From Granulicella sp. (GTDB lineage: Bacteria; Acidobacteriota; Terriglobia; Terriglobales; Acidobacteriaceae): a stretch of 64,000 nt of DNA. The translations under genes were made by a program, and so were the position numbers. The DNA lies in assembly GCA_027339965.1 (NCBI GenBank), contig DAHWNL010000012.1, forward strand, positions 1-64,000, written 5' to 3'. The stretch's first letter is position 1. Every line of letters starts with the position of its first letter. This document shows positions 2,315-25,941 of this stretch, piece by piece. The notes under the pieces were generated by a model that was given only the letters and a program-made list of their open reading frames with translations, was not told the DNA's origin and did not search any database.

Positions 2315-5125
<2,811 letters not shown>

Positions 5126-9482: not shown

Positions 9483-10919
9483 CTACTCGAAGCCGAGCTC
9501 GCTCAGGATCTTCGGATTGGGATCGTCCACATCCAGAAGATTGTGACATGCGGAGCAATCGTTGGTGATCGTTTGTCCGCCCGTGGAGGTATGGTTGCCA
9601 TCGTGGCAACGGAAGCAGCCAGGATAGTTGGTGTGGCCGATGTTGTCTGGATACGTGCCCCAAGTTACATGCATATCCGGGAAGACGTTCTGGTCATAGA
9701 TCTTGATCAGAGCCAGCGCGGCCTGTTCCACCTGCGCGCTCTGGCTGCTCCATATCGCGGGGTACTGGGTGCGGTAGTAGGCTTCGAGGCCGTCTTTGAT
9801 CTTCACCCCGGCTTCGGCCTGGGAGGAGTACTTGGCCTTCAGCAACACAAGACCCTCTTTGTGAACGAAAGGAAGCGCGACGCTGGGAATGCCGGAGGTC
9901 ATGGCCTCATCCAGCGCATCCCCAGGCGTCTGGAAGGAGTGCGCCGCCATGGTATGGCAGTCCATGCAGTCCATCACGCGCCGAACACCTTTGACAGGCC
10001 CCTTCCAGGTCGAGTCGACATACTCGGTCTGGGTACCGTTGGGACCCGGCGCGTAGACCGCGATGATCTTCTGGAAGGTATTGTCGGTGGCTACGTACTC
10101 GATATGATTCAGATGATGTCCATGGATGCCGCTGAGGTGAGAGAGCGAGTCCACTCCGCCAAGGTGCAGGACCAGAATCGTCTTGGTCATGTCATTCTTC
10201 TCGTCGTCAGAGAACTCCGTCTTGACCAGCAACCGGTCGCCGAGGAAGCGCGTAGGATTGTGGCACTCCTCGCAGGTGGCCCGCGCCGGCCGCAGCTCGG
10301 AGAGCGGGGCCAGAATGGGGCGAGGATAGGTATCGAAGGTGACGCCCACCAACTGCTTCGTGCCGGCCATCTTGGCGTTGATGTAGTTTTCAAAACCACT
10401 ACCGACATGGCACTCCACGCAGTCCACGTGAGAGTGGGGAGACCGCTGATATGCCACCCATTGCGGACGCATGGGAACGTGGCAGGCGGTGCCGCAGAAG
10501 GATGGGCTATCCATATACGAGACGCCGCGATAGCTGGCAATGCCGATGATGACGAAGTTGATGAACGTGGCCGCCACGACAAAGTTGAGCGCATGGCGAA
10601 ACATCGGCTCGTTCAAGTCAATATCCGGATAGATGGAGGGCAAACTGCCCGCATCCACCAGTTTCCTCCGCTGGATGGCGATTCCGATCGGAATGACGAT
10701 CAGCCCCAGGAGAAAGATCGCGGGAAGAAAGAGGAACAGCACCAGGCCGACGTAGGGATTTTTGGACCCCGAGTGGCCCAGGATATCCACGGCCCAGAAC
10801 CCAATCAGAACAAAGGCGGCTGCGGATGCCGCCGCGCCGCCGATCAAGCTGAGCGGGTTCTTCCCCAGAAAGAAGAAGGGCTGGAGCCACTGCTTTTTAA
10901 TATGTTCGAAAAGGGACAC
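9483..10919 (-). CDS. NapC/NirT-family membrane-anchored multiheme cytochrome c (ImcH-like)
   Basis: Three N-terminal hydrophobic helices, then FCGTACH (CX3CH), CVECH, CEECH, CMDCH, CFRCH, CSACH; probable GTG start at 10919 (the track ORF extends to 11045). Confidence 0.88.
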   Translation of the reverse strand: MSLFEHIKKQWLQPFFFLGKNPLSLIGGAAASAAAFVLIGFWAVDILGHSGSKNPYVGLVLFLFLPAIFLLGLIVIPIGIAIQRRKLVDAGSLPSIYPDIDLNEPMFRHALNFVVAATFINFVIIGIASYRGVSYMDSPSFCGTACHVPMRPQWVAYQRSPHSHVDCVECHVGSGFENYINAKMAGTKQLVGVTFDTYPRPILAPLSELRPARATCEECHNPTRFLGDRLLVKTEFSDDEKNDMTKTILVLHLGGVDSLSHLSGIHGHHLNHIEYVATDNTFQKIIAVYAPGPNGTQTEYVDSTWKGPVKGVRRVMDCMDCHTMAAHSFQTPGDALDEAMTSGIPSVALPFVHKEGLVLLKAKYSSQAEAGVKIKDGLEAYYRTQYPAIWSSQSAQVEQAALALIKIYDQNVFPDMHVTWGTYPDNIGHTNYPGCFRCHDGNHTSTGGQTITNDCSACHNLLDVDDPNPKILSELGFE

Positions 10920-11025
10920 GGATCGGACCTCGCCGCTGGATTTCGTTCTTATCGAACCATGCTCACGTGATTCCACGCAAGACTTGCTCGTCCGAATATC
11001 CAGTTCCGATCGTGGCGCAAAGGGC

Positions 11026-11925
11026 CTACTCCCGGATATACGCACTCACTGACAATATCAGTAACACAAGTCCGGCGGCGACGACTGTGAAGCCGATCAC
11101 TTTGCTGACCTTGAGCAGCGATCTTTCCGGCTTGCAGGTAAGTTTCTCCCCCAGTCTGCCCTCGGCCCGCAAGCGCTGATACTCCTCAGCGTGCCTCTGT
11201 TGGAACTCTTCTTCCGACTGGACGCCGGTGAAGATCGTCGTATCCATCGGAAAGTTGTCTGGACGCAGATGCCCGTTAATGAAGTGGATTGAAAAGATGA
11301 AGGTGGCGGCGAGCATGGCTTCCTCGCCATGCACGATCTGAACCGCGTTCAGCGCCCAGCCAGGCAGAAACCTGCCGAAGAAGGGCCCGAACCACATCAC
11401 ATAGCCGGAGAATCCAATGATGATCATTCCCCAGAAGACGGCCCAATAGTCAAACTTCTCCCAGTAAGCGTAACGTTCCAGACGGGGCTTGCTGCCCAGT
11501 CCCAGGAACCAGCGGAAGTTTCCGACGATGTCTTTGAGATCCTTCAGGTTTGGAACCATCGAGTCCGGACCCCAAAGCAATCCCTTCTCTTTCTTGACCA
11601 CAACGCGGAACGCGATGTTCGCAATGTGATACAGAAACTCCAAGGTCAGGATCACCGCACAGAACTTGTGAATGAACAAGATGGCTCCAAATCCGCCGAT
11701 GGCCAGCGCAAAGTGCTGCGCCCATGCGTTGCTGCTAAACAGGATCGTGAGGCCGGTCATAGCCAAGCCAAGAAAGGTGGAAAACATGATGACGTGCATC
11801 CATCGCTGTATCGGCGTAAAGCGTACATAGTACCGCTCGGCTTCGGGGTGGGCCTCTGCCGCGCCTCCAGACGAGGCCTGGGGTTCCAACTGCGTGCCTT
11901 CGATCCGAATGGATGGGTCCGTCAT
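11026..11925 (-). CDS. Di-heme cytochrome b membrane subunit (FdnI/HydC-like)
   Basis: [42 protein letters not shown] motifs; ATGA overlap with the upstream multiheme gene; SD AGGAGG. Confidence 0.9.
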
Positions 11926-13247
11926 GATCTTCCTCCTTTTGCAGTCCGACTCTGAACCTTCTCCACCAGGGAGCGGATCAGCCAAAGCACGCTGTGCAGC
12001 ACAAAGAACGTCATCACGCAGGTGATGAGCAAAACCATGAACAAGCGGATGGAGGAGAGGATCGGGAACCTGCGGAAGTTGTGCGGATTCGCATGAGGCT
12101 CATACTTCACAAAGCCCGCATTCGCTCCCGCGTGACAGCGTCCGCAGGTCCTCACCAGATTGGCCCGATTGACTGGAGAGCGCGGGTTGGATGCCGGCAG
12201 GATTCCATGTTCACCGTGACAGTCCGAGCATCTCGCAATGTCGATGTAGCTTCCCAGGGAACTGACCTTGGAGTGGAAGGTATCCCGATAGGTGGTCAAC
12301 TGAGGCTGATGGCAGTTGCCGCAAACCTGCGTCGACTCGGCCATGGTAGGAGCGGAGATCGCGTGCGCGGTGTGACAGTCGGTACAGACCGGAGCCTGTG
12401 GATTGCCTTGCTCCATGGCCTGACCGTGGATGCCCGCCATATACTTCGCAAGAATGCCTGCATGGCAACTTCCGCATGTCTTGGGAATGTTGGTTCGATA
12501 GGTGGGGCTGCGCGGGTCTTTATGGCTCAGAATGTGGTGATCGCCATGGCAACTGCTGCAGTTGGCCGCCACCAGTAGACCCTCCTTGCTGAGCGCAAAT
12601 CCATGGATGGAGTCCACATACTGCGGGTAAACATTGGAGAGATGGTGCTGTTTGGCCATGGACGCATTGCCGTGACACCTGCCGCAGGTTGCGGGAATGT
12701 TCAGGGGATAGGCGGCGGACTTCGGACTGTCCTTGGAAACAATGGCGTGAGCGTCGCCATGGCAGGCCGTACACGGCTGACGGGAGGCATGCTCGTGGAC
12801 GCTGCCGACTAGCGCGCCGGCCTGCTCGGAGTGGCAATTGGCGCAGTTGACCTGCGCCGGGTGATCGGGATGGGGATAGCCATGGATGTCGGCGTGACAA
12901 GCGGTACAGTCCAGGCCGCCATGGACGCTGGCATGGAACAGATTGGCGTCCACGCCCACATTGTGCCCGGCTGCATCCTGCATCGTCGTGTCGCCATGGC
13001 AGGAGAGGCAGTCGGTTTGCGCGCGAAGGGCCGGCCAAGAAAACAGCAGCAGCAGACCGGCACAAGCGACCGCCCAGGATCGCCCGGCAGGCTGGAAGCC
13101 GCGCCAGGCCGGCCGAGTACCCGTCAGGGCGGAAGAACGCCTCAGGGCAAGCTTTGGCCCTCCAACTGGAGACGTGGCTGTCCTGAAGGAGAGCGTGGGA
13201 CCACCCCGGGCTTTTGGCCCGGGGCTTCGTTTGGGGAAGAGAGACAA
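11922..13247 (-). CDS. 11-heme periplasmic cytochrome c with C-terminal TM anchor (start uncertain)
   Basis: Signal-peptide-like AVACAGLLLLFSWPALRA; 11 CxxCH (CLSCH, CTACH, CANCH, CTACH, CGRCH, CSSCH, CGSCH, CTDCH, CGNCH, CSDCH, CGRCH); C-terminal helix with His (FFVLHSVLWLIRS). Confidence 0.9.
   Translation of the reverse strand: MSLFPKRSPGPKARGGPTLSFRTATSPVGGPKLALRRSSALTGTRPAWRGFQPAGRSWAVACAGLLLLFSWPALRAQTDCLSCHGDTTMQDAAGHNVGVDANLFHASVHGGLDCTACHADIHGYPHPDHPAQVNCANCHSEQAGALVGSVHEHASRQPCTACHGDAHAIVSKDSPKSAAYPLNIPATCGRCHGNASMAKQHHLSNVYPQYVDSIHGFALSKEGLLVAANCSSCHGDHHILSHKDPRSPTYRTNIPKTCGSCHAGILAKYMAGIHGQAMEQGNPQAPVCTDCHTAHAISAPTMAESTQVCGNCHQPQLTTYRDTFHSKVSSLGSYIDIARCSDCHGEHGILPASNPRSPVNRANLVRTCGRCHAGANAGFVKYEPHANPHNFRRFPILSSIRLFMVLLITCVMTFFVLHSVLWLIRSLVEKVQSRTAKGGRS
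13203..13225 (-). terminator. GC-rich hairpin between the monoheme cytochromes and the 11-heme gene
   Basis: Minus strand GCCCCGGGC-CAAAA-GCCCGGGGT. Confidence 0.45.
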
Positions 13248-13420
13248 GTCCTGCCGCAAGGGGTAAGGACTTTGAAGATCACGAGGTGGGAGGGTTCTCG
13301 AGGTGTGTTGGTCTTCTAAGTGAAAACGACTCGATGGCTGCTTGCTGCGAGCGGAAACTGGGGCTGCCCCCTCTTTCCGGAGCCTACCCGACGGTGACAT
13401 GACTTGCCTCTTTCAGGTTG

Positions 13421-13735
13421 TCACTTCTGCAACGTTCGAATGTACATCACTGCCGCCTTGATCTGATCAGCCGAGAGCTTGCCTCCATAGGAAGGCATGT
13501 TGCCCTTGCCATTGGTCACGGCAGCGATCAGAGATGCGGTCGATGCCTTCTTCAACTCCGGCGAGTTGAAGGGCATCGCCCTCATGGACTTGCCAGCCAT
13601 GGTCGGCTGGCCGTTGGCACCGTGGCACATCTGGCACTTCGAGCTGTAGATCGCAGCACCCGAGGTCTGTGCAAAGGCTGGTGAAACGGAAATCGCCAGA
13701 ATGGAAGCTGCTGCGAGGGTCAGAGTACGATTCAT
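13421..13735 (-). CDS. Monoheme class I cytochrome c (c6/c553-like)
   Basis: Signal peptide ending AFA; CQMCH; distal Met in NMPSYGGKLS; SD AAGGAG. Confidence 0.93.
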   Translation of the reverse strand: MNRTLTLAAASILAISVSPAFAQTSGAAIYSSKCQMCHGANGQPTMAGKSMRAMPFNSPELKKASTASLIAAVTNGKGNMPSYGGKLSADQIKAAVMYIRTLQK

Positions 13736-13887
13736 GATTGCTCCTTGTGACTCGATTTTGGACTGCTACCTGGGCGACACGAGGAGGCTGCACCCATCTA
13801 GCGTTTCCATACTAACGGATACAATCACGTGGCACATGGTTGTAAGGAGCGAGCTGCTTTTTGAAGTTCGCCATGGGTGGTAACGGG

Positions 13888-14181
13888 CTACTTCAGGGTT
13901 TTGATATACGCGACAACGGCATTCATCTGAGCATCGGTAAGCTTACCGGCGTAAGCAGGCATCCGTGGGCTGATACCCTTCCTGGTGATGGCGATCAGGC
14001 TCGCCGCGGAGGCGCGGGGACTGAACGCGGGAACCTTCATGGCCTTGTTTCCACTTCCATCCGCCATATGGCACATCTGGCACTTGCTCTTGTAGATCGC
14101 GGCGCCGTCCTGGGCCAACATGGGGGTGGCTGCGGTTACGGCGAGGAGGAAGACTGCCAATTTGACTCGATTCGGTTTCAC
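13888..14181 (-). CDS. Monoheme class I cytochrome c, paralog of the adjacent gene
   Basis: GTG start with SD AGGAG; signal peptide; GAAIYKSKCQMCH; RMPAYAGKLT. Confidence 0.92.
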   Translation of the reverse strand: MKPNRVKLAVFLLAVTAATPMLAQDGAAIYKSKCQMCHMADGSGNKAMKVPAFSPRASAASLIAITRKGISPRMPAYAGKLTDAQMNAVVAYIKTLK

Positions 14182-14630
14182 TGGATTCTCCTGTTGCTTC
14201 TGCAAACTGTGGATTGCATCGGTTAGCTTCGTTGATCCCTGCAGCCGTCCAACGTCCAGCCGAGGCCGCACAAGGCCCTCGCCCTGGCCGGTCTTCCGCG
14301 AGATGATCTGCAATGGGCCACTCTACAGACAACAGCCGGGGGGCAGGTAAACCGGAGCTTTGATCCTCTCCCCGGCTGCTGAGCCATACCCCTCGACAAA
14401 ACATCAGGGGCTTCGGACGAAGGTCTGAAGCGCCGGAACCTTCCGCAGGGGCAGGCATGGCAGCCCGGGTACCGGAAGCGGCCGCCGCAAGGCGCTTTGC
14501 TGACCCGCAGAACCTTTTCCACATCGCGGCTTCCCCTCGATCTCGGCGAGCTGGAATCTCCGACCTCCGGAGCTGCTTCGCCGCCTGCGCTGTCTCTGCG
14601 AAGACCATAGTCCTGCGCTGGAGATCAACC

Positions 14631-14646
14631 AGTGATTTCCATCACA
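14631..14646 (-). promoter_or_regulatory. Crp/Fnr box with class II promoter geometry for the cytochrome operon
   Basis: Minus strand TGTGA-TGGAAA-TCACT; -10-like TATGGT at 14609-14604. Confidence 0.75.
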
Positions 14647-14788
14647 AAAGGAAACTTTCAAAGCGTGCTCCCCCAGTTCGCAAGCCGGCGATCGTGTCCT
14701 ACTTCGCAGATCTCAAGACATTTACCGCCAAAGAAGAGAAGGGGGATGATTCGCTGATATTCGAATCAATTGTGCGATGATCATCCAT

Positions 14789-14804
14789 TGTGACGCGGAT
14801 CACA
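14789..14804. promoter_or_regulatory. Perfect Crp-consensus box
   Basis: TGTGA-CGCGGA-TCACA in intergenic DNA. Confidence 0.7.
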
Positions 14805-15028
14805 GCAGCCTGCGCAGGCTTGGCATCTGATGGTGATGTCAGGACGTTGGGGTTGGAAGCACAAGCGGGACAAGCCTCAGAACGCATCGGCCCGACCGGG
14901 CGTCACAGACTGCGGAAGGGAGTTGCCATGTCGGATAAGCTCTCGGAACCGGTGTGGATGCTCTCAAAGCCCCGCAGCTTAGCATCTGCCGCGGCTCGCC
15001 GTTTCCGCAGGAGACGGGGAGCGAGCCT

Positions 15029-15058
15029 CAAAGAAGCCGAATGCAAAGAAGCCGAATG
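15029..15058. repeat. Exact 15-bp tandem duplication
   Basis: CAAAGAAGCCGAATG x2. Confidence 0.8.
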
Positions 15059-15073
15059 GAAGATAGGTTGCGG

Positions 15074-15226
15074 CTATCGCGGAAGCTGGGCGGAACAGAG
15101 CGTCGTCGCCAGGTTGGCGAGGAAAAGAACTGCAAAGGCAACCAGAATCACCACAACGCCGCCTACTGTTAACCGCTCCCAGAGATCTGAGCTCTTGCCC
15201 GCAAACAACTCCTGCTTTGCCGCCAT
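15074..15226 (-). CDS. Unannotated 50-aa single-TM small protein
   Basis: MAAKQELFAGKSSDLWERLTVGGVVVILVAFAVLFLANLATTLCSAQLPR; SD GAGGA; Crp box and TAGAGT -10 immediately upstream. Confidence 0.65.
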   Translation of the reverse strand: MAAKQELFAGKSSDLWERLTVGGVVVILVAFAVLFLANLATTLCSAQLPR

Positions 15227-15272
15227 GGATCTTGTCCTCATGCCCCACTCTAAAGAGTTCGACGGCGATTGC

Positions 15273-15288
15273 AGTGACCCTGGTCACA
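15273..15288 (-). promoter_or_regulatory. Crp/Fnr box between the small protein gene and the crp/fnr gene
   Basis: Minus strand TGTGA-CCAGGG-TCACT; -10-like TAGAGT at 15252-15247. Confidence 0.72.
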
Positions 15289-15391
15289 GGCAGGTTCCTG
15301 ATCGGATCCTGCCGCTGTGGCGCGGGCATCGGGATCAAAACGTCCCAACCATGACTTCGCTTTTGTCTTTCGTCAACCAGGAGGTCAATCG

Positions 15392-16105
15392 ATGAACTAC
15401 CTTCATACCCACATGAACTCCGGCTGCAAAGACTGTTCTGACCGCTCCTTGCGTATTCTGTGCGATCTCTCCGGGCAAGCTCGCTCTGACTTCGAGGCTC
15501 TTGGCATGCAAATGCGGCTGCCCAAGCGCTCCGTCATCTTTCAGGAAGATGATATCTGTGATGCCGCAACCATCATTTGCATGGGCCAGGTGAAGTTGTC
15601 CTGCACCTCGCGTGAAGGCAAGACGCATATTCTCAGAATTGCCGTCCCCGGGGATCTGCTGGGGCTGGGCGCCGCAATCTCCGGGACGCACTATGAGTTG
15701 ACCGCTGAAACCATCGAACCTTGCGTCGTGAAGAAGATTCGACGCAGCGAGTTGTTGGCCTTTCTGGAGAGATACGGGCAAGCGAGCATGCTGGCGGCCA
15801 AGGCGCTCTCCGAGGAGTACAAATCGGCGTTCTTTGATGCCCGACGGCTGGCGCTCTCCGGCTCCACGGCCGGCAGGCTGGCCGGCGTCTTGCTGGACTG
15901 GGGACGGGCTGCCGCCGGACGACACGGAACGGACATGCGCTTCACCATGGCGTTGACGCATGAGGAACTCGCCAATTTGGCCGGAACATCCCGTGAGACG
16001 GTCACTCGCGCTTTGGGAAGGTTTCAGAGAGACGGCTTGATTGAGATTCACGGCTCTTCCTTTCGCGTCCTCGCGCCGCTGGAATTGGAGAACCTGGCCA
16101 CCTAG
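15392..16105 (+). CDS. Crp/Fnr family transcriptional regulator with N-terminal Cys cluster
   Basis: SD GGAGG; CKDC-x8-C; cNMP-fold GQVKLS..PGDLLGL; HTH LTHEELANLAGTSRETVTRAL. Confidence 0.95.
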   Translation: MNYLHTHMNSGCKDCSDRSLRILCDLSGQARSDFEALGMQMRLPKRSVIFQEDDICDAATIICMGQVKLSCTSREGKTHILRIAVPGDLLGLGAAISGTHYELTAETIEPCVVKKIRRSELLAFLERYGQASMLAAKALSEEYKSAFFDARRLALSGSTAGRLAGVLLDWGRAAAGRHGTDMRFTMALTHEELANLAGTSRETVTRALGRFQRDGLIEIHGSSFRVLAPLELENLAT

Positions 16106-16413
16106 GAGTTTACTCAGCGAGCGCCAAAGCAACGATTGAGGCTCTGCAAGGTGTGTCACGGCCGAAGGGATGCGCCTTGGAAGGGGGAGCTTCGGGGACG
16201 CAACGGCGTTCCAAAACAGTCCTCGGCAACCCAGCCATCGGTGCTCAAGCTGGTCTGCGGCGAGTGGATTGGGGGCAGGCGGCGCAGTGGCCGGGGCGGA
16301 GGAGTTGAACGCATTGCGGCCACGGCGTCATCGGCTCGAATAGGATAGCTTTCCAGCCAGGACCATGATGTTCCAGCAACTCTCCAGCCGCGCCTCCGGA
16401 AGATGCATCTTCG

Positions 16414-16429
16414 TGTGACAAACGTCACC
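16414..16429 (+). promoter_or_regulatory. Crp/Fnr box upstream of usp
   Basis: TGTGA-CAAACG-TCACC. Confidence 0.65.
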
Positions 16430-16597
16430 GTCATTTCTCTTCAAACAGAATTCAATCAAGCAAAACATCGCAGGGCGGAAAGCCTTCGAGTGGCCGTGCG
16501 TGAGGCGAACTCCCATTGCTCCCTGCGTTCCACCGGGCAAGGGCCGGTGGCGATGCATCAGCGACGCGTAGAAGTCGGCTGAGGGAGGCTTGGCCTT

Positions 16598-17572
16598 ATG
16601 CAGGATTGTTCCAGCAAGACGCCATCCCCCTTCCGCAGAGTGCTGTTGGCCACAAATCTCGGCGAGGGCTCCGAAGAGGTTTTGCATGCAGCTCTGCAAC
16701 TCTGCCGGAGGAGCGGCGCTAGCCTCCGGATCCTGCATGTCTCCAAGCCATATCCACCTCTCAGCCAGGACAAGGGAGAGTCAGCCAGGTTCATCGCACT
16801 GCCCCGCTCATTGGACCAGGAGGCGTCCGAACTCCTTCGCGAGGCCAGAGAACGCGCTCTCTCGCTCAGTCTCCACTGCATCACGCGGCAGGAGTCGGGG
16901 GTTCCAGCGGAGAGGATTCTGAAGGCATTGGAGGCCGAGGAGACTGACCTGCTCATCCTTGGAACGGGGGAGCCTCACGGCTCCATTCGCAATGCCTTTG
17001 GACCAACCGCCGAGAAGGTGATGCTGCAAGCCGCCTGCCCCATCATGACGGTAGGGCGGGTAGCGGCCGAGACCTTTCAGCCCAGCCCCTCCGATGGACC
17101 CGTACTCTTTGCCACCGACTTTCACTCATGCACTCGGCAGGCGATCCACCAGGCCATCCGCTATAGCAGGAGCATCCAACAGAAGCTTCACTGTGCGCAC
17201 GTGCTGCCTCGCGCAATGCAGTCCATTCATGGAGACAACACCCTGGCCGAACTTCTGACCAATGCGCTCAAACACCTGGTAACCACCAACAACACATCAG
17301 ACCAGGACACAATCTGCGCGGTGATCTATGGAAGCGAAATCTCCAATGCCATCGTAAATTACGCCCGGCAAATCCACGCGGGCATCATCTTTCTCGGAGT
17401 ACGCAGGAACAGCATTCTTTCTTCACCGGATCGTCTCCCCATTGCTTTCCGAATCATTGTCGAATCACCCTGCCCGGTTGTGACCATCCTCTGCGGCGAA
17501 GAGGCCGAGCCGGAGAACATGACTGATTTGGGCGCCTGCAGCTTCAAGGCGCCACCCTCGCCTCTGCAGTAA
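16598..17572 (+). CDS. Universal stress protein, tandem Usp domains
   Basis: RRVLLATN..LRILHV..DLLILGT..FGPTAEKVMLQAACPIMTV and VLFATDF..IIFLGVR..ESPCPVVTI; SD GGAGG. Confidence 0.92.
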   Translation: MQDCSSKTPSPFRRVLLATNLGEGSEEVLHAALQLCRRSGASLRILHVSKPYPPLSQDKGESARFIALPRSLDQEASELLREARERALSLSLHCITRQESGVPAERILKALEAEETDLLILGTGEPHGSIRNAFGPTAEKVMLQAACPIMTVGRVAAETFQPSPSDGPVLFATDFHSCTRQAIHQAIRYSRSIQQKLHCAHVLPRAMQSIHGDNTLAELLTNALKHLVTTNNTSDQDTICAVIYGSEISNAIVNYARQIHAGIIFLGVRRNSILSSPDRLPIAFRIIVESPCPVVTILCGEEAEPENMTDLGACSFKAPPSPLQ

Positions 17573-17664
17573 GACACCGCAGAAGCTCATGGGCCTCCGC
17601 CTCCGGCCTGCTGCCGAAGGCGAAGCAGTGCCCACCCGAACCCGGCCGCTGTGGAAAGCCTGTT

Positions 17665-18807
17665 CTAGTGAACGGGCGGCTCATAGTGACAGAACGGATC
17701 GCTCGCCAGCGCATCCCCCGTTGCCGCAAAGGCTCGCGCGCGAGAACCGCCGCATAGAGCGCGATACTCACAGCGCCCGCACTTTCCCTTGAACTGATTG
17801 GGATCGTGCAACGCCCGGAAGATCGGCGCGTTGCGGTAAACATCCTGGAGCTGGTCGGTGCGTATGTTGCCGACCGCCAGCGGGAGGAAGCCGGCCGGGC
17901 AGATGTCGCCCTGATTCGAGATAAAGACAATTCCGTGACCATCGCGGATGCCAAAACCGCGATAGACGGGAGTGCGCTCGATCTCGCCGGCCGCCATGCC
18001 CGCTGCGCGCATGCGGCTGAGTGCCACGCGGCGATAAGACGGCGCTTCCGTAGTGGCCATGGCAAAGGGGGCGACCTTGGACTGGTCGTAGATCCAGTTC
18101 ATCAGTTCCTCTCCACGCTCGCTGGAGATCGGCTGCAGGACCTTGCCGCGCCCGACCTCGATCAAAAAAAACAGGCTCCAGCGCATCACCGGAAAGGTCT
18201 TGAGCAACTCATAAACAGCGGGAACGTCGTCCACCGTCTCTTCGGCGACAAGCGTGTTCACCTGAATGGGAACACCCAGGCCGGCTGCCGCCTTGGCGGC
18301 GGCGATGGTCCAGCCGAAGCAGCCCTCCACGCCGCGTACTGCCTCATGGCGAGCTGCTGTTGAGCCATCCAGGCTGAGGCCGAAGCTGTCAATCCCATGC
18401 TCCCTGAGCCGGGAGAGTACCTCCACCGTAAGGTCCGTCGTCGCGCTGGGCGTAATGGATGCGTTGATGCCCAACGAACGCGCCTCGTCGATCAAATCGA
18501 AGAGATCCGCACGCCGCAGCGGGTCGCCGCCGGTAAAGACCAGGTGCGGCGTGGGGTTCTTGAAAGCCGCGATCTGGCGCAACAGGTTTTTCCCCTCCTC
18601 AAAGGTGAGCTCATTGGGGTGCGGCGTGGAGACAGCCTCGGCGCGGCAGTGACGGCAGGCGAGCCCACAGGCTTGCGTCATCTCCCAATACACCAGCATC
18701 GGTTGCTCTGCGTAGCTGTGATTGGAGGAGTGCTGCGGGTGAGTGTGCGGATGCACGTGGCGGGCCGGCATGGAGGAGGGGATCGAACGGATATCCATGG
18801 TTGACAT
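17665..18807 (-). CDS. Radical SAM/SPASM protein, AhbD/NirJ-related (TIGR04053-like)
   Basis: WEMTQACGLACRHCRA (CxxxCxxC), TGGDPL, C-terminal KCGRCEYRALCGGSRARA..DPFC; directly downstream of hemG. Confidence 0.9.
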   Translation of the reverse strand: MSTMDIRSIPSSMPARHVHPHTHPQHSSNHSYAEQPMLVYWEMTQACGLACRHCRAEAVSTPHPNELTFEEGKNLLRQIAAFKNPTPHLVFTGGDPLRRADLFDLIDEARSLGINASITPSATTDLTVEVLSRLREHGIDSFGLSLDGSTAARHEAVRGVEGCFGWTIAAAKAAAGLGVPIQVNTLVAEETVDDVPAVYELLKTFPVMRWSLFFLIEVGRGKVLQPISSERGEELMNWIYDQSKVAPFAMATTEAPSYRRVALSRMRAAGMAAGEIERTPVYRGFGIRDGHGIVFISNQGDICPAGFLPLAVGNIRTDQLQDVYRNAPIFRALHDPNQFKGKCGRCEYRALCGGSRARAFAATGDALASDPFCHYEPPVH

Positions 18808-18818
18808 AAATGGTTCTC

Positions 18819-20330
18819 CTAAGAGCTAGAAGGGGCTTCAAGCGCAACCGGCGACGGATCGTGGGCTGTCTGAGGGCCGGCCCGATGCGGGAGCGGCCCA
18901 CCATGATGAATCTTCGCAGCGGTCTCGGCCCCGCGCTGGATGCATTCCGGTATCCCGGAGCCGTGATAGGCTGCACCCGCCAGGTAGAGACCCGGATGGT
19001 TTGCAATCTCGCGCTCGATCTCCTGAACCAGTACGCCATGGCCGATATTGTATTGGGGGACGGACTTTCTCCAACGGTAGGCACGGGCGAGGATGGGAGT
19101 TGCAGTGATGCCCAGGATCTCTCTCAACTCCTGGCGTGCCACCTCAATCAGGGCATCCTCATCCTGTTCGGCCAGATCTTCTGCAAAGACGCCGCCAATG
19201 AAGACCCGCAGAAGCACGCTGTCGGCCGGCGCGCGATGCCCGAACTTGTTGGAAGACCAGGAGCAGGCATTGATCCTTCGCCCCTCGCTGCGGGGCACAA
19301 TGAAGCCAAATCCACTCAGCGCGCAGGTGACCTCGCTGCGGCGGAACGCCAGCGAAACGGTCGCGGTGGAGACGTAGTGAATCTTGCGCAGATTGTCGGA
19401 CAGCACCGGATCCAGCCGTTCCAGGATCTCCGCGGTGACGTAGGCGGGCGTGGCGAAGACGACGTTCTCCGCCGCCACCGAAGCGCCGCTCGCCAGGGTG
19501 ACTGTGTAACCTCCGCCGCGGGCTGGATCACCCTTCCGAATCAACGAATGCACGGGGCAGTTCAGCCTGATCCGCTCCGAAGCAAGACGAGAGACCAGGG
19601 CGTCGGGAAGTTGCTGGACACCGCCGCGGAGCGTGGTAAACATCGAGGTGTGGCCTGCCGGAGCCGGCTTCGCAGCTGACGCTCCCGCTGAGGCAGAGGC
19701 TTGCGCCTTCTTGCGTCTCATCATGCCCAGCACCAGGCTGCGATGCTTTGCCTCCAGCTCCACAAACATGGGAAAGGTGCTGCGCAGACTCAGGCTGTCA
19801 GGATCTCCAGAGTGAATGCCGGCCATCAACGGACCCGCAATCTTCTCCAACATCTCGGAACCCAGGCGGCGGCGGACAAAACTACCCAGACTCTCATCTG
19901 GATCCGATGTATTCCTGCCAACAAAGATCTCCAGCCCCAAGCGCAGCTTGCCCGGCCAGGAGATCAGCCGAGAGCGAAGAACCGGAAGCATCATGGTCGG
20001 AGCCATCAGCATCATGCCTTCCGGCATGGGGTGCAGCCGTCCCTTGTTCAACACATAGGTGGAGGCCGTGGAGCTTTGGTTGGACCCGATCAGTTGATCG
20101 CCCAGGCCCAGCTCCAGGCAAAGGTCCAGCGCAGCCCGCTTCTGGGTCAGAAAGGAGTCCGGCCCGCCTTCCACCAGGAAGCCATCGCCGGCATGGGTGG
20201 TGATCTTCCCTCCCAGATGGCCGGAGCTCTCCAGCAGGAGATAGTCGGCTTCCTTGCCTTCCAGCTTCTGGAGGAAATATGCGGTCGAAAGACCTGCGAT
20301 TCCCGCACCGATGACGACTGTCCTGTGCAT
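18819..20330 (-). CDS. hemG: HemY-type flavin-dependent protoporphyrinogen/coproporphyrinogen oxidase
   Basis: VVIGAGIAGLSTA FAD motif, EGGPDSFL, GFGFIVP, PQYNIGH, GSGIPECI. Confidence 0.94.
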   Translation of the reverse strand: MHRTVVIGAGIAGLSTAYFLQKLEGKEADYLLLESSGHLGGKITTHAGDGFLVEGGPDSFLTQKRAALDLCLELGLGDQLIGSNQSSTASTYVLNKGRLHPMPEGMMLMAPTMMLPVLRSRLISWPGKLRLGLEIFVGRNTSDPDESLGSFVRRRLGSEMLEKIAGPLMAGIHSGDPDSLSLRSTFPMFVELEAKHRSLVLGMMRRKKAQASASAGASAAKPAPAGHTSMFTTLRGGVQQLPDALVSRLASERIRLNCPVHSLIRKGDPARGGGYTVTLASGASVAAENVVFATPAYVTAEILERLDPVLSDNLRKIHYVSTATVSLAFRRSEVTCALSGFGFIVPRSEGRRINACSWSSNKFGHRAPADSVLLRVFIGGVFAEDLAEQDEDALIEVARQELREILGITATPILARAYRWRKSVPQYNIGHGVLVQEIEREIANHPGLYLAGAAYHGSGIPECIQRGAETAAKIHHGGPLPHRAGPQTAHDPSPVALEAPSSS

Positions 20331-20356
20331 CACGATGTCACGCTTTCGCTAAGCAT
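20330..20356 (-). other. 8-codon upstream mini-ORF (MLSESVTS*) coupled to hemG by a TGATG overlap
   Basis: Minus strand AGGAGGAACC-ATG CTT AGC GAA AGC GTG ACA TCG TGA-TG CAC. Confidence 0.6.
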
Positions 20357-20453
20357 GGTTCCTCCTGGGAGAGGGGCGGCTGGGTTAGAAGCTCCTCCAG
20401 CGCCCCGGAGTTCGTCATCGCCTTTAAGGTTATCGGGGAAAGCCCGGGGTCAC

Positions 20454-20469
20454 GGTGACTCCAATCACA
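20454..20469 (-). promoter_or_regulatory. Crp/Fnr box with class II geometry for the hemG-radical SAM operon
   Basis: Minus strand TGTGA-TTGGAG-TCACC; -10-like TAACCT at 20432-20427. Confidence 0.75.
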
Positions 20470-20741
20470 AAGCCTCCATCCGCGCTCCCTGACCGCGCCA
20501 GAGGATAGCGCCACCCTCTTCATCCCGAGAGAAGCTTGCCTTCAGGATCGCAATAACGGCAGGTTACCGTTTGACTCCGTCCGGCGGCCACAACCTCTCG
20601 TCATTGCCCCCAGTCGACCGTGAGCTGGTTGACGGAAGCGGTCAAGTCAGCCTGCTTGTGCGTCAACCCAGCCACCGCGCTGAATCAGATGGTCAAGGCG
20701 TAACGCCCCCGGGCGATCCATGAGAGGTAATTCTCCTTTTC

Positions 20742-22262
20742 CTAAGCCAGCATGCTCCCTGTCTTCAGAAAGCGGCTGTGCCAGGAGAGAGACTCGTCAA
20801 GAAGGTGTGGAGTATGTTTGCCGGGTGCAAGTTTCTCCGCACGGTGGAAGTAGTCGCGTAGCGCCGGACGAAAGTCGGGATGTGCGCAGTTCTCAATGAT
20901 GACTTTTGCGCGCTGCTTGGGTGAGAGTCCCCGCAGATCGGCCAACCCCTGATCCGTCACCATCACCTGGAGGTCATGCTCGGTGTGATCGACATGGGAG
21001 ACCATGGGAACGATGGTGGAGATCTTGCCCTTGGCCGCAGTCGATGGCGCCATCATGAAGGTAATATAGCCATTGCGAGTAAAGTCGCCCGAACCTCCGA
21101 TACCGTTTTGCATGCTCGATCCCATGATGTGGGTGGAGTTTACGTTCCCATAGATGTCCCCCTCAATCATGGCGTTCATTGTGATCACGCCCAGGCGACG
21201 GATGATCTCCGGACTGTTCGAGACCTCCTGCTGACGGATCACAATCTGATTGCGATAACTGCCGATCTTCGGCATGATCTTGGCAATCCCCTCCGGGCTC
21301 AACGAAAACGCCGTCGCCGACAGGCTGCTCAGCTTGCCCACATCCAGCAGGTGCACCATGCCATCCTGAATGACCTCCGTGTAGGAGGTCATCCCTTCAA
21401 AAGGAGCCTCTTCCAAGCCAAAGAGAACGGCATTGGCGATGTTGCCTACGCCAGACTGTAAAGGGAAGAGATTGGAAGGCAGATGGCCCTTCTTCACCTC
21501 CCACTCAAGAAAGTTGATGATGTGGCCGGCAATCTTGCGTGAAGCATGGTCCGGTTCCTTGAAGGGGCTGGCCCGGTCTCCAATGTCCGTATGGACCACC
21601 GCAATCACCTTCTGCAAAGGAACCTTGAGATACGGAGTGCCAATTCTCTGATTGGACTTGAGCAAGGGCAGCGGAATACGGTTGGGCGGCAGGCCAAGCC
21701 CATAGAAGAGGTCGTGCATGCCCTCCAGCTCCAGCGGCTGGCCGGAGTTGACCTCCAGGATCACCTTGTCAGCGCGCTCGATCCAGGTAGTGTTATTGCC
21801 CACCGAAGAGCTAGGGACCACGCGTCCATCCTCTAGGATGGCGGTCACCTCAATGATGGCAAGATCCATCTTGCCAAAAAAGCCGTAATCCACCTGCTGC
21901 GCCTGATGGCTCAGATGGATATCCATGTAACTGGCATCGCCGTTGTTGATCCGCTTGCGTAGCTCGGGATCACCCTGGTAAGGCGCGCGCATCTCCACGC
22001 CGTTGGCTTTGCCCAGCGCTCCGTCCAGCTCGGGACCGGTGGAAGCTCCGGTGAGCACGCTCACCCGGAAGCTCTCACCCCTCTCATGGTCAGCCTCGAT
22101 GCGCTTGGCCAGCGCCTTTGGAACTGCCTTGGGGTAGCCAGATCCCGTAAAGCCGCTCATGCCGATCAAGGATCCCGGCTGGATCATCGCCGCTGCTTCG
22201 TCGGCGCTCATCACACGCTGCGCGAAAGACGAATTCAAAACTCTGGAACTGGTTGAAGCCAT
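20742..22262 (-). CDS. Succinyl-CoA:acetate CoA-transferase / acetyl-CoA hydrolase family (AarC/Ach1-like)
   Basis: MSGFTGSGYPKAVP, LTGASTG, PLQSGVGNIANAV, YTEVIQD, NGIGGSGDF, IVPMVSHVDHTEHD, DQGLADLRGLSP. Confidence 0.93.
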   Translation of the reverse strand: MASTSSRVLNSSFAQRVMSADEAAAMIQPGSLIGMSGFTGSGYPKAVPKALAKRIEADHERGESFRVSVLTGASTGPELDGALGKANGVEMRAPYQGDPELRKRINNGDASYMDIHLSHQAQQVDYGFFGKMDLAIIEVTAILEDGRVVPSSSVGNNTTWIERADKVILEVNSGQPLELEGMHDLFYGLGLPPNRIPLPLLKSNQRIGTPYLKVPLQKVIAVVHTDIGDRASPFKEPDHASRKIAGHIINFLEWEVKKGHLPSNLFPLQSGVGNIANAVLFGLEEAPFEGMTSYTEVIQDGMVHLLDVGKLSSLSATAFSLSPEGIAKIMPKIGSYRNQIVIRQQEVSNSPEIIRRLGVITMNAMIEGDIYGNVNSTHIMGSSMQNGIGGSGDFTRNGYITFMMAPSTAAKGKISTIVPMVSHVDHTEHDLQVMVTDQGLADLRGLSPKQRAKVIIENCAHPDFRPALRDYFHRAEKLAPGKHTPHLLDESLSWHSRFLKTGSMLA

Positions 22263-22445
22263 CGAAACCTTCACCTTCCTCTTCCTGAATCTTTTACAAC
22301 TGCGGTACAGCTTCAGGCAAGTAAGAAGGCTGTCCAGATCCTGATTGTCTCCAGCCCGCCGCAGAAAGGGATCCTCCCGGGGATCTCCTCCCGGGAGCAA
22401 TCTGAACACTCGTCTTCAAGAATAGCGGGCCAGGACCGAACGGCG

Positions 22446-23765
22446 TCACCGCGCGGAAGCCAGACGCTCCTCCGAGCCTGTTCCGCGAGTATACGAGTCC
22501 GGCAGCTTCCTGTACTCGTGCCCGACATAGACCTGACGAGGCCGAGCGATCTTCTGCTCCGGATCGTTGATCAGCTCCTGCCACTGCGCCAGCCAACCTA
22601 CCGCGCGCGGAATCGCAAACAGGACCGTGAACATCTTGGGCTCAAACCCCATCGCCTCATAGATGATGCCCGAGTAGTAATCGACGTTGGGATACAGCTT
22701 GCGCGAGACAAAGTAATCGTCCGTCAGCGCAATCCTCTCCAACTCCATCGCCAGATCGATCTTCTTGTTGCGGCCGGTGATCTCAAAGACCTCATCGGCG
22801 GTCTTCTTGATCATCTTGGCCCGAGGATCGTAGTTCTTGTACACCCGATGCCCAAAGCCCATCAGCTTCTGGTGTCCTTCTTTCACACCCTTGATGAACT
22901 CCGGAATGTTCTCCTTGCTGCCGATCTCATCCAACATCTTCAGCACAGCCTCATTGGCGCCGCCGTGCAGCGGACCCGCCAGACCCGCCGTTGCCGCAGC
23001 CGCGCTCAGGAAGGGATCCGCCTCCGAGCTGCCTACCGAGCGCATGGCGTTGGTCGAGCAGTTCTGCTCATGATCGATGTGCAGGATGAACAGAACATCC
23101 AGCGCGCGGGCCAGCACCGGATGCTTCAAGTGCTGCAGCGGGCTGCGGTCCCAAAGCATGTGCATGAAGTTCTCCGCATAACCCAGTTGGGGCTCCGGCG
23201 CAATGTAATCCAGACCCTTGCTGTGACGGTAGCCATAGGCTGCGATGATCGGAACCTTGCCCACCATCCGGTGGATGCTCTCCATCTGGCGGTCATGATT
23301 GCGCACCTCTTTGGATTCCGGATAGAACGTGGAAAGCGCCGCCATGGTGCTCACCAGCATGCCCATCGGATGCGCATCGTAGCGGAACCCTTCCATGAAC
23401 TTCTTGATGTTTTCGAAGATGCCCATGTGAATCCGAATCGCCGCCAGCCACTCCGCTTCCTGTTCCGGCGTTGGCAGCTCTCCGTGAATGACCAGATATG
23501 CCACCTGCGGAAAAGTGCAGTGCTCCGCCAGATCCGCGATGTCATATCCGCGATAGCGCAGAATGCCTTTGTCGCCGTCGATGAAGGTAATCTTGCTCTG
23601 GCACGATGCGGTGTTGGTAAAAGCCGGATCATAAGACATCAAGCCGAAGTCCTCGGCGTCCACCTTGATCTTGCGCAGATCCATCGCACGAATCGTTCCA
23701 CGCGTTACCGGAAACGTGTATTGCTTTTCAGTGCGGTTATCTATCACTGTTACCGTGTTATCCAT
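22446..23765 (-). CDS. gltA: Citrate synthase
   Basis: ITFIDGDKGILRYRGY, LHIDHEQNCST, GPLHGGANE, MGFGHRVYKNYDPRA, YPNVDYYSG. Confidence 0.97.
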   Translation of the reverse strand: MDNTVTVIDNRTEKQYTFPVTRGTIRAMDLRKIKVDAEDFGLMSYDPAFTNTASCQSKITFIDGDKGILRYRGYDIADLAEHCTFPQVAYLVIHGELPTPEQEAEWLAAIRIHMGIFENIKKFMEGFRYDAHPMGMLVSTMAALSTFYPESKEVRNHDRQMESIHRMVGKVPIIAAYGYRHSKGLDYIAPEPQLGYAENFMHMLWDRSPLQHLKHPVLARALDVLFILHIDHEQNCSTNAMRSVGSSEADPFLSAAAATAGLAGPLHGGANEAVLKMLDEIGSKENIPEFIKGVKEGHQKLMGFGHRVYKNYDPRAKMIKKTADEVFEITGRNKKIDLAMELERIALTDDYFVSRKLYPNVDYYSGIIYEAMGFEPKMFTVLFAIPRAVGWLAQWQELINDPEQKIARPRQVYVGHEYRKLPDSYTRGTGSEERLASAR

Positions 23766-23817
23766 AAAATACTTCCTTTCGATTGCTCAACTATCGTCTT
23801 CCCCGAGTAGCGTCGAT

Positions 23818-23833
23818 TGTGACACGCATCACA
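23818..23833 (-). promoter_or_regulatory. Perfect Crp/Fnr box upstream of gltA
   Basis: (T)TGTGA-CACGCA-TCACA(A); -10-like GATAGT at 23795-23790 on the minus strand. Confidence 0.8.
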
Positions 23834-24054
23834 ACCGTTGAAATCATCCGGGTGCTCTTTCCACGCTCGCACTCAGCCGAAATCATGGTGGCTCTCTTCG
23901 CACACCTTCCGTGCTCTCTTATTCCATCGAGATATCCCTTGCGCTCTTGATCCAGCTTGAGGTCCACTCGCATCCTTACCCATGAAATTCCATATTTCCT
24001 GGCCCCATTCTGATAGAGACGAGGCCGTCACGCTCCAAGCGCAATCTTCGACTC

Positions 24055-24092
24055 GATCACTCTGCGAAAGAGATCACTCTGCGGAAACGATC
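24055..24092. repeat. Direct repeat GATCACTCTGCG with 17-bp period in the gltA/fumC intergenic region
   Basis: Copies at 24055 and 24072; partial GATC at 24089. Confidence 0.65.
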
Positions 24093-24516
24093 TCACCAGA
24101 GCCGGAGTGAAAATTCTGAAATCGGATGCTAACAAATCCCCGGAAACCTTCTGGCCGATTACCGGAATGACACCTGCCCATCCGCCTAGCTATAGTTATA
24201 TCTGCAACCTCGTGGTGGCCGCCTGTTTCGTTCTGTATTGCACCCTGCCGGACCGGCTCCACTGGCAGAAGCTGCGCCGATGACGCCAAAGGCGCACCGG
24301 TCCAGACGGAGCGCGACGCGGCCTTCGCTTTGGGAAGAAGCCAAGGAATGGCCCGAGAGCAGGGGTTTCTGTCCGCTTCGCTCAGGGGGTTCTTCCGCAG
24401 CCCTCCCCAATCCCCACCGGGGCCCGGCGTCGTTGCAGGGCGACGGCATCGATCGCAAGATAATCATTCTTCTCGCCCGGCAGGGCGCGCGGAATTCGGA
24501 TGAGGGCAAAAGGTCC

Positions 24517-25941
24517 ATGAACGGAACAGATGAGATGAGGCAAGCTTTCACGCGGGGGGTACGCCAGGAGTCCGACAGCATGGGACAGATCGAAGTCCCT
24601 TTTAACCACTACTGGGGGGCGCAGACCCAGCGAAGCCTGCACCACTTCGCCATTGGCGAAGACCGCATGCCGCTGGAGCTGATCCGGGCCTTCGGCATCC
24701 TCAAGAAGGCCGCGGCGCTGGTGAACCACGACCTTGGCAAACTGCCCCGGGACAAGATGGAGTTGATCGTGCAAGCCGCCGACGAAGTGATCGAAGGCAA
24801 GCTCAACCAGGAGTTTCCGCTGCGCATCTGGCAGACCGGCTCCGGCACCCAGACCAATATGAATGTGAACGAGGTCATCTCCAACCGCGCCATCGAGATT
24901 GCAGGCGGCGAGATGGGCAGCAAGAAGCCGGTGCATCCCAATGACCACGTGAATATGTCGCAGTCCTCCAACGATACGTTTCCCGCGGCTATGTACATTG
25001 CCGCGGCTACAGCGGTCAAGGAGAGGCTGATCCCGGCAATACAGCATCTGCATGATTCCATTGCTGCCAAAGCCCAAGAGTTTGAATCCGTGGTGAAGAT
25101 CGGCCGCACCCATTTGCAGGACGCAACGCCGTTAACCCTGGGCCAGGAGATTGGCGGCTGGTCAAGTCTGCTCGAACGCGATATTCAGCGCCTGGAGGTC
25201 TCTCTCAGCGGCCTCTACGAGCTGGCCATCGGCGGCACCGCGGTCGGCACGGGGCTGAACACCCATCCGGAGTTCGCTGACCGCGTTGCCGCCAGAATCG
25301 CCGAACTCACCGGCCTTCCCTTCCGCTCCCATCCCAACAAATTTGCAGCGCTCTCGGCGCACGACGAGTTGGTCTTCGCCAGTGGAGCTCTGGTGACGCT
25401 CTCCGCCTCCATGATGAAGATCGCCAATGATGTCCGTTGGCTCAGCTCCGGGCCGCGCTGCGGTCTGGGCGAGCTGACGATTCCGGAGAATGAGCCTGGA
25501 AGCTCCATCATGCCCGGCAAGGTAAACCCCACGCAGAGCGAGGCCATGACCATGGTCGCCGTGCAGGTGCATGGAAACAATGCCGCCATCGCCTTTGCCG
25601 GCAGCCAGGGCAACTTTGAGCTGAATGTTTTCAAGCCGGTGATGATTTACAACTTCATGCACTCGGTCCGTCTGCTCAGCGATACCAGCCGCATGTTCGT
25701 GGAGTTCTGCATGAACGGGCTGGAAGCCAACCTGCAGCGCATCCACCAGTATGTGGAGAACTGCCTGATGCTGGTGACGGCTCTCAACCAGTACATCGGT
25801 TACGACAAGGCCGCCAAGCTAGCCAAGACCGCGCACCAAAAAGGGATCTCCTTGCGCGAGGCCAATCGTGAGCTGGGCTATCTCAGCGAAGAGGAGTTTG
25901 ACGCCTACATGAAGCCGGAGAAGATGACCACCGCGGGCTGA
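24517..25941 (+). CDS. fumC: Class II fumarate hydratase
   Basis: [65 protein letters not shown]. Confidence 0.97.

Follow-up and report, generated by a model that had tools for sequence, protein, structure and literature searches.

A citrate synthase–CoA-transferase gene pair of Granulicella sp. in a predicted Crp/Fnr-type regulon with multihaem cytochromes

Background

Why do a citrate synthase gene and a CoA-transferase gene stand side by side behind a perfect TGTGA-N6-TCACA palindrome, in the neighbourhood of a block of multihaem cytochromes, in an acidobacterium? The question is raised by a stretch of 64,000 nucleotides from a Granulicella sp., here called the window, which is contig C21 of a genome (G000) of 3.82 Mb that is 98.9% complete. 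In this stretch the gene of a type I citrate synthase (gltA) and that of an AarC/ScpC-type succinyl-CoA:acetate coenzyme A (CoA)-transferase (CoAT) follow one another on the same strand, and the class II fumarase gene fumC lies divergently from them. In acidic soils, peat and mine waters the Acidobacteriaceae rank with the most abundant bacteria; they are usually treated as aerobic heterotrophs, and little is known of their metabolic control. A preliminary description of this DNA had joined the three genes into an acetate-oxidising module attached to the cytochrome block, with the transferase in the place of succinyl-CoA synthetase.

Our analysis suggests that the genes encode a known tricarboxylic acid (TCA) cycle variant, of the AarC type, and belong to a Crp/Fnr-type regulon, a reading to which we give a probability of roughly 0.55. 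Within it, the prediction that gltA shares one activator with the cytochrome block and with haem-synthesis and universal stress protein genes is well supported, because the promoter architecture is conserved and a Crp/Fnr-family regulator gene lies in the same window. Acetate oxidation and cytochrome respiration would then probably be turned on together. A literature search with most subscription journals outside its reach brought up no account of a regulon of this kind in Acidobacteriota, and it returned no relevant paper on CoAT in an acidobacterial TCA cycle.

Results and discussion

Identity of the gene pair

Genes were identified with curated NCBIfam profile cut-offs and Pfam domains, applied to the open reading frames (ORFs) of the window. 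The region at issue, 20742-25941, is bounded by the stop codons of CoAT and fumC and holds the following features:

20742..22262, minus strand: AarC/ScpC-type succinyl-CoA:acetate CoA-transferase (CoAT), 506 aa; the ORF extends to 22409
22446..23765, minus strand: type I citrate synthase gltA; TIGR01798 527.8 bits (cut-off 485.15), NF004126 550.7 bits (above cut-off)
23790..23795, minus strand: -10-like hexamer GATAGT, beginning 30 nt downstream of the centre of the gltA box
23818..23833, no strand: perfect TGTGA-N6-TCACA box, TGTGACACGCATCACA, centred 60 bp upstream of the gltA ATG
24517..25941, plus strand: class II fumarase fumC; ORF from 24238; TIGR00979 766.6 bits (cut-off 664.75)

The genes gltA and CoAT are on the same strand, 183 bp apart, and fumC is divergent; profiles and the box at 23818-23833 thus confirm the earlier picture of a co-oriented gltA and AarC-type CoAT behind a perfect Crp-type box. 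The likely start of CoAT is the ATG at 22262, preceded by a GGAAGGTGAAGG stretch, and its product passes the cut-offs of both TIGR03458 (765.6 bits against 658.7) and the ScpC model NF053853 (723.2 bits against 500). The gltA product reaches 328.3 bits on the type II citrate synthase model, under the cut-off of 421.3. The fumC product carries the Lyase_1 and FumaraseC_C domains, and its start is likely to be near 24517 since the profile match begins at ORF residue 108. A scan of the entire window with Rfam at gathering thresholds gave no matches.

A class II promoter design shared by gltA and CoAT genes

A -10-like hexamer, as behind the gltA box, recurs at a nearly fixed distance in other promoters of the family. 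Among loci with acidobacterial-type CoAT genes, a box precedes the start codon by 72-172 bp in 30 of 44, as against 0 of the 32 other CoAT loci with enough upstream sequence, so that the predicted link between box and CoAT is clade-specific. In 29/30 of these CoAT promoters the distance from the box centre to the start of a TAnnnT hexamer is 29 or 30 nt, and on the mirror side this is so in 0/30. Other type I gltA loci have a box within 400 bp upstream in 18 of 25 cases. Of the type I gltA promoters, 14/19 have NAnnnT at 29-30 nt, and 2/19 have it on the mirror side. The same 29-30 nt spacing is seen at hemY, at the small cytochrome c gene, at two 311-aa multihaem cytochromes and at scdA, and the hexamer is 28-31 nt from the box at ccmE, a FixG-like gene and nuoA. 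The counterparts in G002 and the cytochrome operons of the genomes G020 and G019 have this class II spacing too, and the hexamer of G014 is two bases further out. Since the -10 hexamer starts 29-30 nt from its centre, the box would be placed at about -41.5, the position of a class II activator. It is therefore a well-supported prediction that gltA is driven by a class II promoter with its box at -41.5 from a predicted start site, and equally that the CoAT genes of other Acidobacteriaceae have promoters of their own of exactly the gltA design.

When CoAT stands behind gltA the situation is different: none of the four loci of this kind has a box directly upstream of CoAT. Since CoAT has no box of its own behind gltA in this genus and in G027, a member of another genus, it is probably read from the gltA promoter. 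The intervening spacer is as follows:

22263..22445, minus strand: spacer between gltA and CoAT, holding a GC-rich hairpin and neither a box nor a promoter-like site

A terminator and promoter scan of 20200-24600 yielded no excess over shuffled sequences, with no site on the minus strand of this spacer. The window hairpin (z -0.7) is weaker than the two strong ones found in the related loci L004 and L005 (z -4.7, -6.0). The simplest reading is that two regulon members have become merged behind one box, with likely read-through from gltA through the hairpin spacer into CoAT.

Boxes across the window and the genome

The gltA box is one of a set. Further boxes of the window, and the genes that they precede or adjoin, are:

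9483..11045, minus strand: NapC/NirT-like cytochrome with 5 CXXCH motifs
11026..11985, minus strand: b-type cytochrome (Ni_hydr_CYTB)
11086..11101, no strand: box upstream of the NapC/NirT-like gene
11922..13400, minus strand: 11-CXXCH cytochrome
13421..13735, minus strand: second small monohaem cytochrome c
13888..14313, minus strand: small monohaem cytochrome c
14631..14646 and 14789..14804, no strand: two boxes upstream of the cytochrome block; the first has TATGGT at 29 nt
15273..15288, no strand: box upstream of the Crp/Fnr-family regulator gene
15392..16105, plus strand: Crp/Fnr-family regulator with the genome's best HTH_Crp_2 match, 70.7 bits; ORF from 15317
16414..16429, no strand: box upstream of usp, kept in G002
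16598..17572, plus strand: universal stress protein gene usp (Pfam Usp)
17665..18807, minus strand: radical SAM/SPASM protein related to the haem b synthase AhbD; TIGR04053 456.8 bits (cut-off 395)
18819..20333, minus strand: hemY/CgoX-type protoporphyrinogen oxidase; TIGR00562 326 bits (cut-off 97.85)
20454..20469, no strand: box upstream of hemY, with 1 mismatch and with TAACCT at 29 nt from the box centre

At no more than one mismatch the window has 7 boxes, all within 11086-23818; the shuffle mean is 1.19, and 7 or more were reached in 0 of 100 shuffles. Perfect boxes number 11 in the genome against about 1.85 expected from base composition, and 23 of the 53 genomic boxes with up to one mismatch are intergenic, in contigs that are 90% coding. 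In G002, L005, L003 and L085 the boxes keep their positions but not their six spacer letters, which argues for a conserved binding site, albeit a putative one. The gltA box is retained in G002 and L005, the hemY box in G002 and L005 (perfect in both) and in L003, and both boxes of the cytochrome block in G002, where the counterpart of the first has the same geometry.

Elsewhere in G000 boxes are found upstream of sucA, where the box is conserved within the genus, of PFOR (a perfect box, divergent from nuoA), of a 189-aa multihaem cytochrome, of a cbb3-type cytochrome c gene, of ccmE, of a FixG-like ferredoxin and of two paralogous 311-aa multihaem cytochromes (C44:28165-29100 and C80:13819-14754). 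The promoters of the latter two are nearly identical: they share the leader, and both have TAGGCT at 30 nt from a perfect box. At C34:60433-63097 a single box stands between two divergent genes, hcp for the hybrid-cluster protein and scdA for di-iron repair; such a combination is typical of regulons for nitrosative or anaerobic stress. Two boxes also precede a second Crp/Fnr-family regulator gene, on contig C32. Within the window, the hemY and AhbD-like pair could be responsible for an oxygen-independent last step of haem synthesis, co-induced with the cytochromes.

The candidate activator and its possible signal

The regulator gene of the window, which the preliminary description had missed, encodes a protein with a Cys-x2-Cys-x8-Cys motif, a further cysteine (Cys111) after the beta-roll and the recognition helix SRETVTR. 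Its orthologue in G002 and the paralogue on C32 share the cysteine pattern and a helix of the form S/T-RETV/I-TR. The best solved relatives are Mycobacterium tuberculosis CRP and GlxR-type entries, aligned from residue 41, and an FNR structure aligns from residue 12, the first of the cysteines; three of the cysteines are in an N-terminal part that matches to cAMP-type CRPs leave uncovered. In Escherichia coli FNR four cysteines, three N-terminal in a Cys-x2-Cys-x5-Cys motif and one central, hold a [4Fe-4S] cluster; the spacing differs here. The TGTGA-N6-TCACA palindrome is read by M. tuberculosis CRP, Corynebacterium glutamicum GlxR and Bacillus Fnr; GlxR and E. coli CRP act at gltA, and Shewanella CRP reportedly controls anaerobic respiration. 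On account of its cysteine pattern and of the content of the regulon, the regulator may sense low oxygen or the redox state and in response activate the set.

The CoA-transferase and its place in the TCA cycle

CoAT matches Acetobacter aceti AarC (4eu3) over the full length with 620 bits. The available text of PMC4876117 assigns to AarC a Glu294 nucleophile, an internal oxyanion-hole residue Asn347, an external one, Gly388, and a gate, Val270, as well as an acetate-binding triad of Ser71, Thr94 and Arg228. When the window protein was aligned with 76 CoAT homologues taken from the collected loci, the counterparts of Glu294, Asn347, Gly388, Val270, Ser71 and Arg228 proved to be kept by it and by 76/76 homologues. 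At the position of Thr94 (CoAT residue 97), 72/76 have Ser, and Gly is confined to the window protein and the three relatives closest to it. An active-site role of AarC Glu435 does not appear in the available text of PMC4876117 and was not adopted. With profile scores above cut-off, the match to AarC and the catalytic residues kept, the AarC-type identity proposed earlier is borne out: by sequence the protein is an AarC-type class I CoA-transferase, and a succinyl-CoA:acetate activity is predicted for it.

By tblastn G000 has one CoAT and one fumC, and no class I fumarase was found in the genome, which makes fumC the only fumarase found there. The only other homologue of citrate synthase (PF00285), on contig C87, is 30% identical to gltA. 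As a candidate for the standard citrate synthase of the family it was rejected: it is within a prpB-prpC-prpD cluster, is 75% identical to prpC of G006 and is only 37-38% identical to the ubiquitous short citrate synthase of the family. Because of its place in that cluster we regard it as the 2-methylcitrate synthase prpC, and gltA is the only dedicated citrate synthase found in G000. The only aconitase by tblastn of the genome, acnA, is also in the window (2315-5125), without a box.

Contig C12 carries sucC (516.9 bits) and sucD (446 bits), both above cut-off, and acs and ackA are also encoded in G000; no match to isocitrate lyase reached the cut-off in this genome. The presence of sucCD implies that CoAT supplements succinyl-CoA synthetase and is not its replacement, contrary to what had been proposed. 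The companion suggestion, that these are second copies of housekeeping genes, likewise fails for G000, where CoAT and fumC are single and the other citrate synthase is prpC. In the scheme that we favour, 2-oxoglutarate dehydrogenase would supply succinyl-CoA, CoAT would transfer its CoA to acetate, and the resulting acetyl-CoA would be used by citrate synthase. In this way the cell would oxidise acetate, or detoxify it at low pH, and forgo one ATP equivalent, and reducing power would flow to the co-induced respiratory chain.

Distribution in the family and gene order

One genome from each of 60 other genera of Acidobacteriaceae was surveyed, with counts uncorrected for kinship and with two genomes flagged as unpublished, G005 and G028, included in all tallies. 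A citrate-synthase domain of any kind is found in 59/60 genera, type I gltA in 21/60 and CoAT in 9/60, among them G012 at only 47% identity. Most genera have the shorter citrate synthase, which is 34-38% identical to both gltA and prpC of G000; it was not found in G000 or G027, both of which have type I gltA followed by CoAT. Type I gltA is present in 8 of the 9 genera with CoAT as against 13 of the 51 without it. Thus, type I gltA and CoAT behave as accessory genes of the family that tend to travel together, judging from this distribution, and in the lineage of G000 the accessory citrate synthase appears to have become the sole one, displacing the family standard. The guess of second copies was therefore nearly right for the family, where type I gltA and CoAT are patchy extras.

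Among 80 loci around CoAT homologues, gltA and fumC are also adjacent only in the two closest, L004 and L005; the L003 locus is too short on the gltA side to judge. The genome G002 is colinear with the window through the cytochromes, usp, the radical-SAM gene, hemY, CoAT, gltA, fumC and relA, and G027 has gltA followed by CoAT, with no adjacent fumC or cytochrome homologue. In other genera no conserved metabolic partner was found beside CoAT, which stands next to unrelated genes, most commonly a Ser/Thr kinase with TPR repeats, DksA, a sigma-54 activator and GvpL/F. The gene fumC has no box nearby, and its adjacency to gltA, limited to the two closest relatives, is absent in G027; previously counted in the module, it is most likely a housekeeping gene that adjoins the regulated unit without belonging to it.

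Some other details of the locus may be recorded here. The gap between gltA and fumC (23766-24516, about 750 bp) is unusually long and contains a direct repeat of GATCACTCTGCG, in two copies near 24055-24090; the best sigma-70-like site of the region is at 24167-24196, about 320 bp upstream of fumC. The RelA/SpoT gene (26444-29005) is without a box. Between CoAT and hemY, L004 (8671-10530) and, in the same place, L005 have a 619-aa ORF without an NCBIfam match, which is missing from the window, where about 400 bp separates the two genes.

Relation to the cytochrome block

Attachment of the acetate genes to the cytochrome block, as first described, holds as co-location, although it is a loose one, with about 6.4 kb and five or six genes between 14313 and 20742. 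A tighter arrangement is seen in G020 (locus L146, G020:C9 7500-14500), where type I gltA is inside a homologous cytochrome operon in the order box, small cytochrome c, NapC/NirT-like gene, box, gltA, a fusion of c- and b-type cytochromes and a divergent Crp-family regulator. The fusion joins a 13-CXXCH c-type to a b-type cytochrome in one 734-aa ORF; in the window these are separate genes.

The co-occurrence of module and cytochromes, proposed as a check, depends on the similarity that is asked for. At any similarity, a NapC/NirT-like homologue is present in 20 of the 21 genera with type I gltA as against 16 of the 39 without it; close orthologues occur mostly in genera lacking type I gltA or CoAT. 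The link between module and cytochromes is, in our reading of these genomes, a predicted shared switch in some lineages, not an inherited unit.

Weighing the alternatives

Several observations weigh against the regulon reading or parts of it. With regard to the cytochromes, type I gltA is found in only 3/10, and CoAT in 1/10, of the genera that have a NapC/NirT-like homologue of at least 48% identity; G027 has the gltA-CoAT pair and its box with no NapC/NirT-like cytochrome; and gltA and the NapC/NirT-like gene are far apart or on different contigs except in this genus and G020. With regard to regulation, the sucA and PFOR boxes are without clean class II geometry, the Crp-family regulator of G020 is without three of the four cysteines, the spacer hairpins could be terminators, and strict activation by low oxygen would be awkward if gltA is the only citrate synthase. 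None of the sequencing runs with the locus is recorded as RNA, and activation, signal and co-transcription are what we infer from the DNA. As to the chemistry, sucCD, acs and ackA make CoAT dispensable for both the cycle and acetate activation, and the substrate preference of CoAT may differ because of the Gly at the Thr94 position. Finally, gltA of Acidobacterium capsulatum, type I or otherwise, shows no significant change under nanoxia in Table S4 of PMC11636273; these data are not decisive, as this gltA may or may not be of the type found in the window.

Some of these points are what one would expect if the genes were ordinary TCA genes under general catabolite control of the CRP type, their proximity to cytochromes being a genus-level accident of gene order. 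The box would then report the state of carbon or energy supply, in the manner of E. coli CRP or Corynebacterium GlxR at gltA. In G000 they are the sole genes for essential functions, among solved structures the regulator is best matched by cAMP-type CRPs, TCA and cytochrome genes are adjacent only in this genus and G020 among the 21 genera with type I gltA, and the cytochrome orthologues are mostly without type I gltA or CoAT. We nevertheless think this account unlikely, because the set has the look of a respiratory or low-oxygen regulon (four multihaem cytochrome loci, ccmE, the FixG-like gene, hcp/scdA, the AhbD-like gene and usp), both regulators have an FNR-like cysteine pattern that lies outside the cAMP-type CRP matches, and neither type I gltA nor CoAT belongs to the core of the family, in which both are accessory. 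A comparably small chance is that the pair provides aerobic resistance to acetic acid as in A. aceti (aarA and aarC), removing the acetate of the protonated acid independently of the cytochromes. The same two enzymes adjoin among the A. aceti aar genes (PMC7889782, available part), CoAT is a 620-bit match to AarC, and the stretch occurs in runs labelled mine drainage and mine tailings, going by the labels alone; this account differs from the regulon reading in physiological role alone, the chemistry being the same. It sits poorly with a promoter type that is common to low-oxygen-type genes, with the want of an aarB-like ORF between gltA and CoAT, and with the presence of sucCD, whereas AarC replaces succinyl-CoA synthetase (SCS) according to the available text of PMC7889782.

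The transferase could also run in reverse under low oxygen, making acetate and succinyl-CoA from succinate and PFOR-derived acetyl-CoA, with SucCD then producing ATP; such an ASCT/SCS cycle operates in hydrogenosomes and trypanosomes. The reaction is reversible and eukaryotic enzymes run in this way together with SCS (PMC9768450, available part), sucCD is retained, PFOR has a perfect box, and A. capsulatum shifts to acetate and ethanol under nanoxia (PMC11636273, available part). We hold this to be quite improbable here: CoAT is directly behind citrate synthase, a consumer of acetyl-CoA, and 8 of the 9 genera that have it also have type I gltA; sucA, whose product makes the CoA donor, has a genus-conserved box too; there is no box near sucCD, the only site on C12 being about 6 kb from the sucC start; and ackA already offers the usual bacterial route to acetate. 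Returning to the regulon reading, one may extend it to an FNR-like low-oxygen programme of some Acidobacteriaceae, in which accessory gltA, CoAT, haem synthesis, cytochrome c maturation and ImcH/CbcL-like cytochromes were independently assembled, in another phylum, into a Geobacter-like anaerobic oxidation of acetate to CO2 with extracellular Fe(III) as acceptor, the accessory gltA having replaced the standard one in this mine-water lineage. This extension is tentative, and we rather doubt that it holds in full.

Significance

The enzymes are of a known kind, and what gives the locus its value is the regulatory link, together with the replacement of the standard citrate synthase in evolution. 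If the link is real, one promoter design, TGTGA-N6-TCACA with a -10 hexamer 29-30 nt off, would mark a respiratory and central-carbon programme in the family, and by this design regulons could be read directly from metagenome-assembled genomes. It would also offer a testable link between acetate turnover and multihaem respiration in iron-rich acidic habitats, with a bearing on carbon and iron cycling.

Comparison with known systems

The nearest parallel to the gene pair is the aarA-aarB-aarC cluster of A. aceti, in which, in the available text of PMC7889782, aarA is paired with aarC and AarC stands in for succinyl-CoA synthetase in the cycle. The likeness consists in the adjoining genes of a citrate synthase and an AarC-type CoA-transferase and in the acidic settings, which for G000 are known from the labels of sequencing runs alone. 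At least half of the sampled words of window 20300-24600 were found in runs of six studies whose labels read mine drainage, sediment, wastewater and mine tailings; several of these runs may be the source sample itself. In contrast to the A. aceti cluster, the window has no aarB-like ORF between gltA and CoAT, G000 keeps sucCD and belongs to a different phylum, the Thr94 equivalent is Gly, and the promoter is of a Crp/Fnr class II type common to multihaem cytochromes.

Anaerobic acetate oxidisers, such as Desulfobacter and Desulfurella acetivorans, and by proposal Geobacter sulfurreducens, are similar in that a CoA-transferase ties succinyl-CoA to the activation of acetate; according to the available text of PMC9768450, a transferase-dependent cycle saves ATP and the transferases are of different families that arose convergently. 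In G000 the CoAT module is likewise in a predicted regulon with multihaem cytochromes of a presumed quinone-linked type. Unlike these organisms, G000 also has 2-oxoglutarate dehydrogenase and a gene for a subunit of nuo-type NADH dehydrogenase, and it is known from its genes alone, Fe(III) reduction being conjectural. With ImcH and CbcL of Geobacter the comparison is one of domain layout: the window has a NapC/NirT N-terminal region, and its b-type and 11-CXXCH cytochromes are encoded by separate genes.

As a control system, the set resembles the CRP and FNR global regulators in its box, in the RETV motif of the recognition helix, in the class II design at -41.5 and in its TCA and respiratory targets. 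It differs from them in the sensor domain of the G000 regulator, with its Cys-x2-Cys-x8-Cys motif and a later cysteine.

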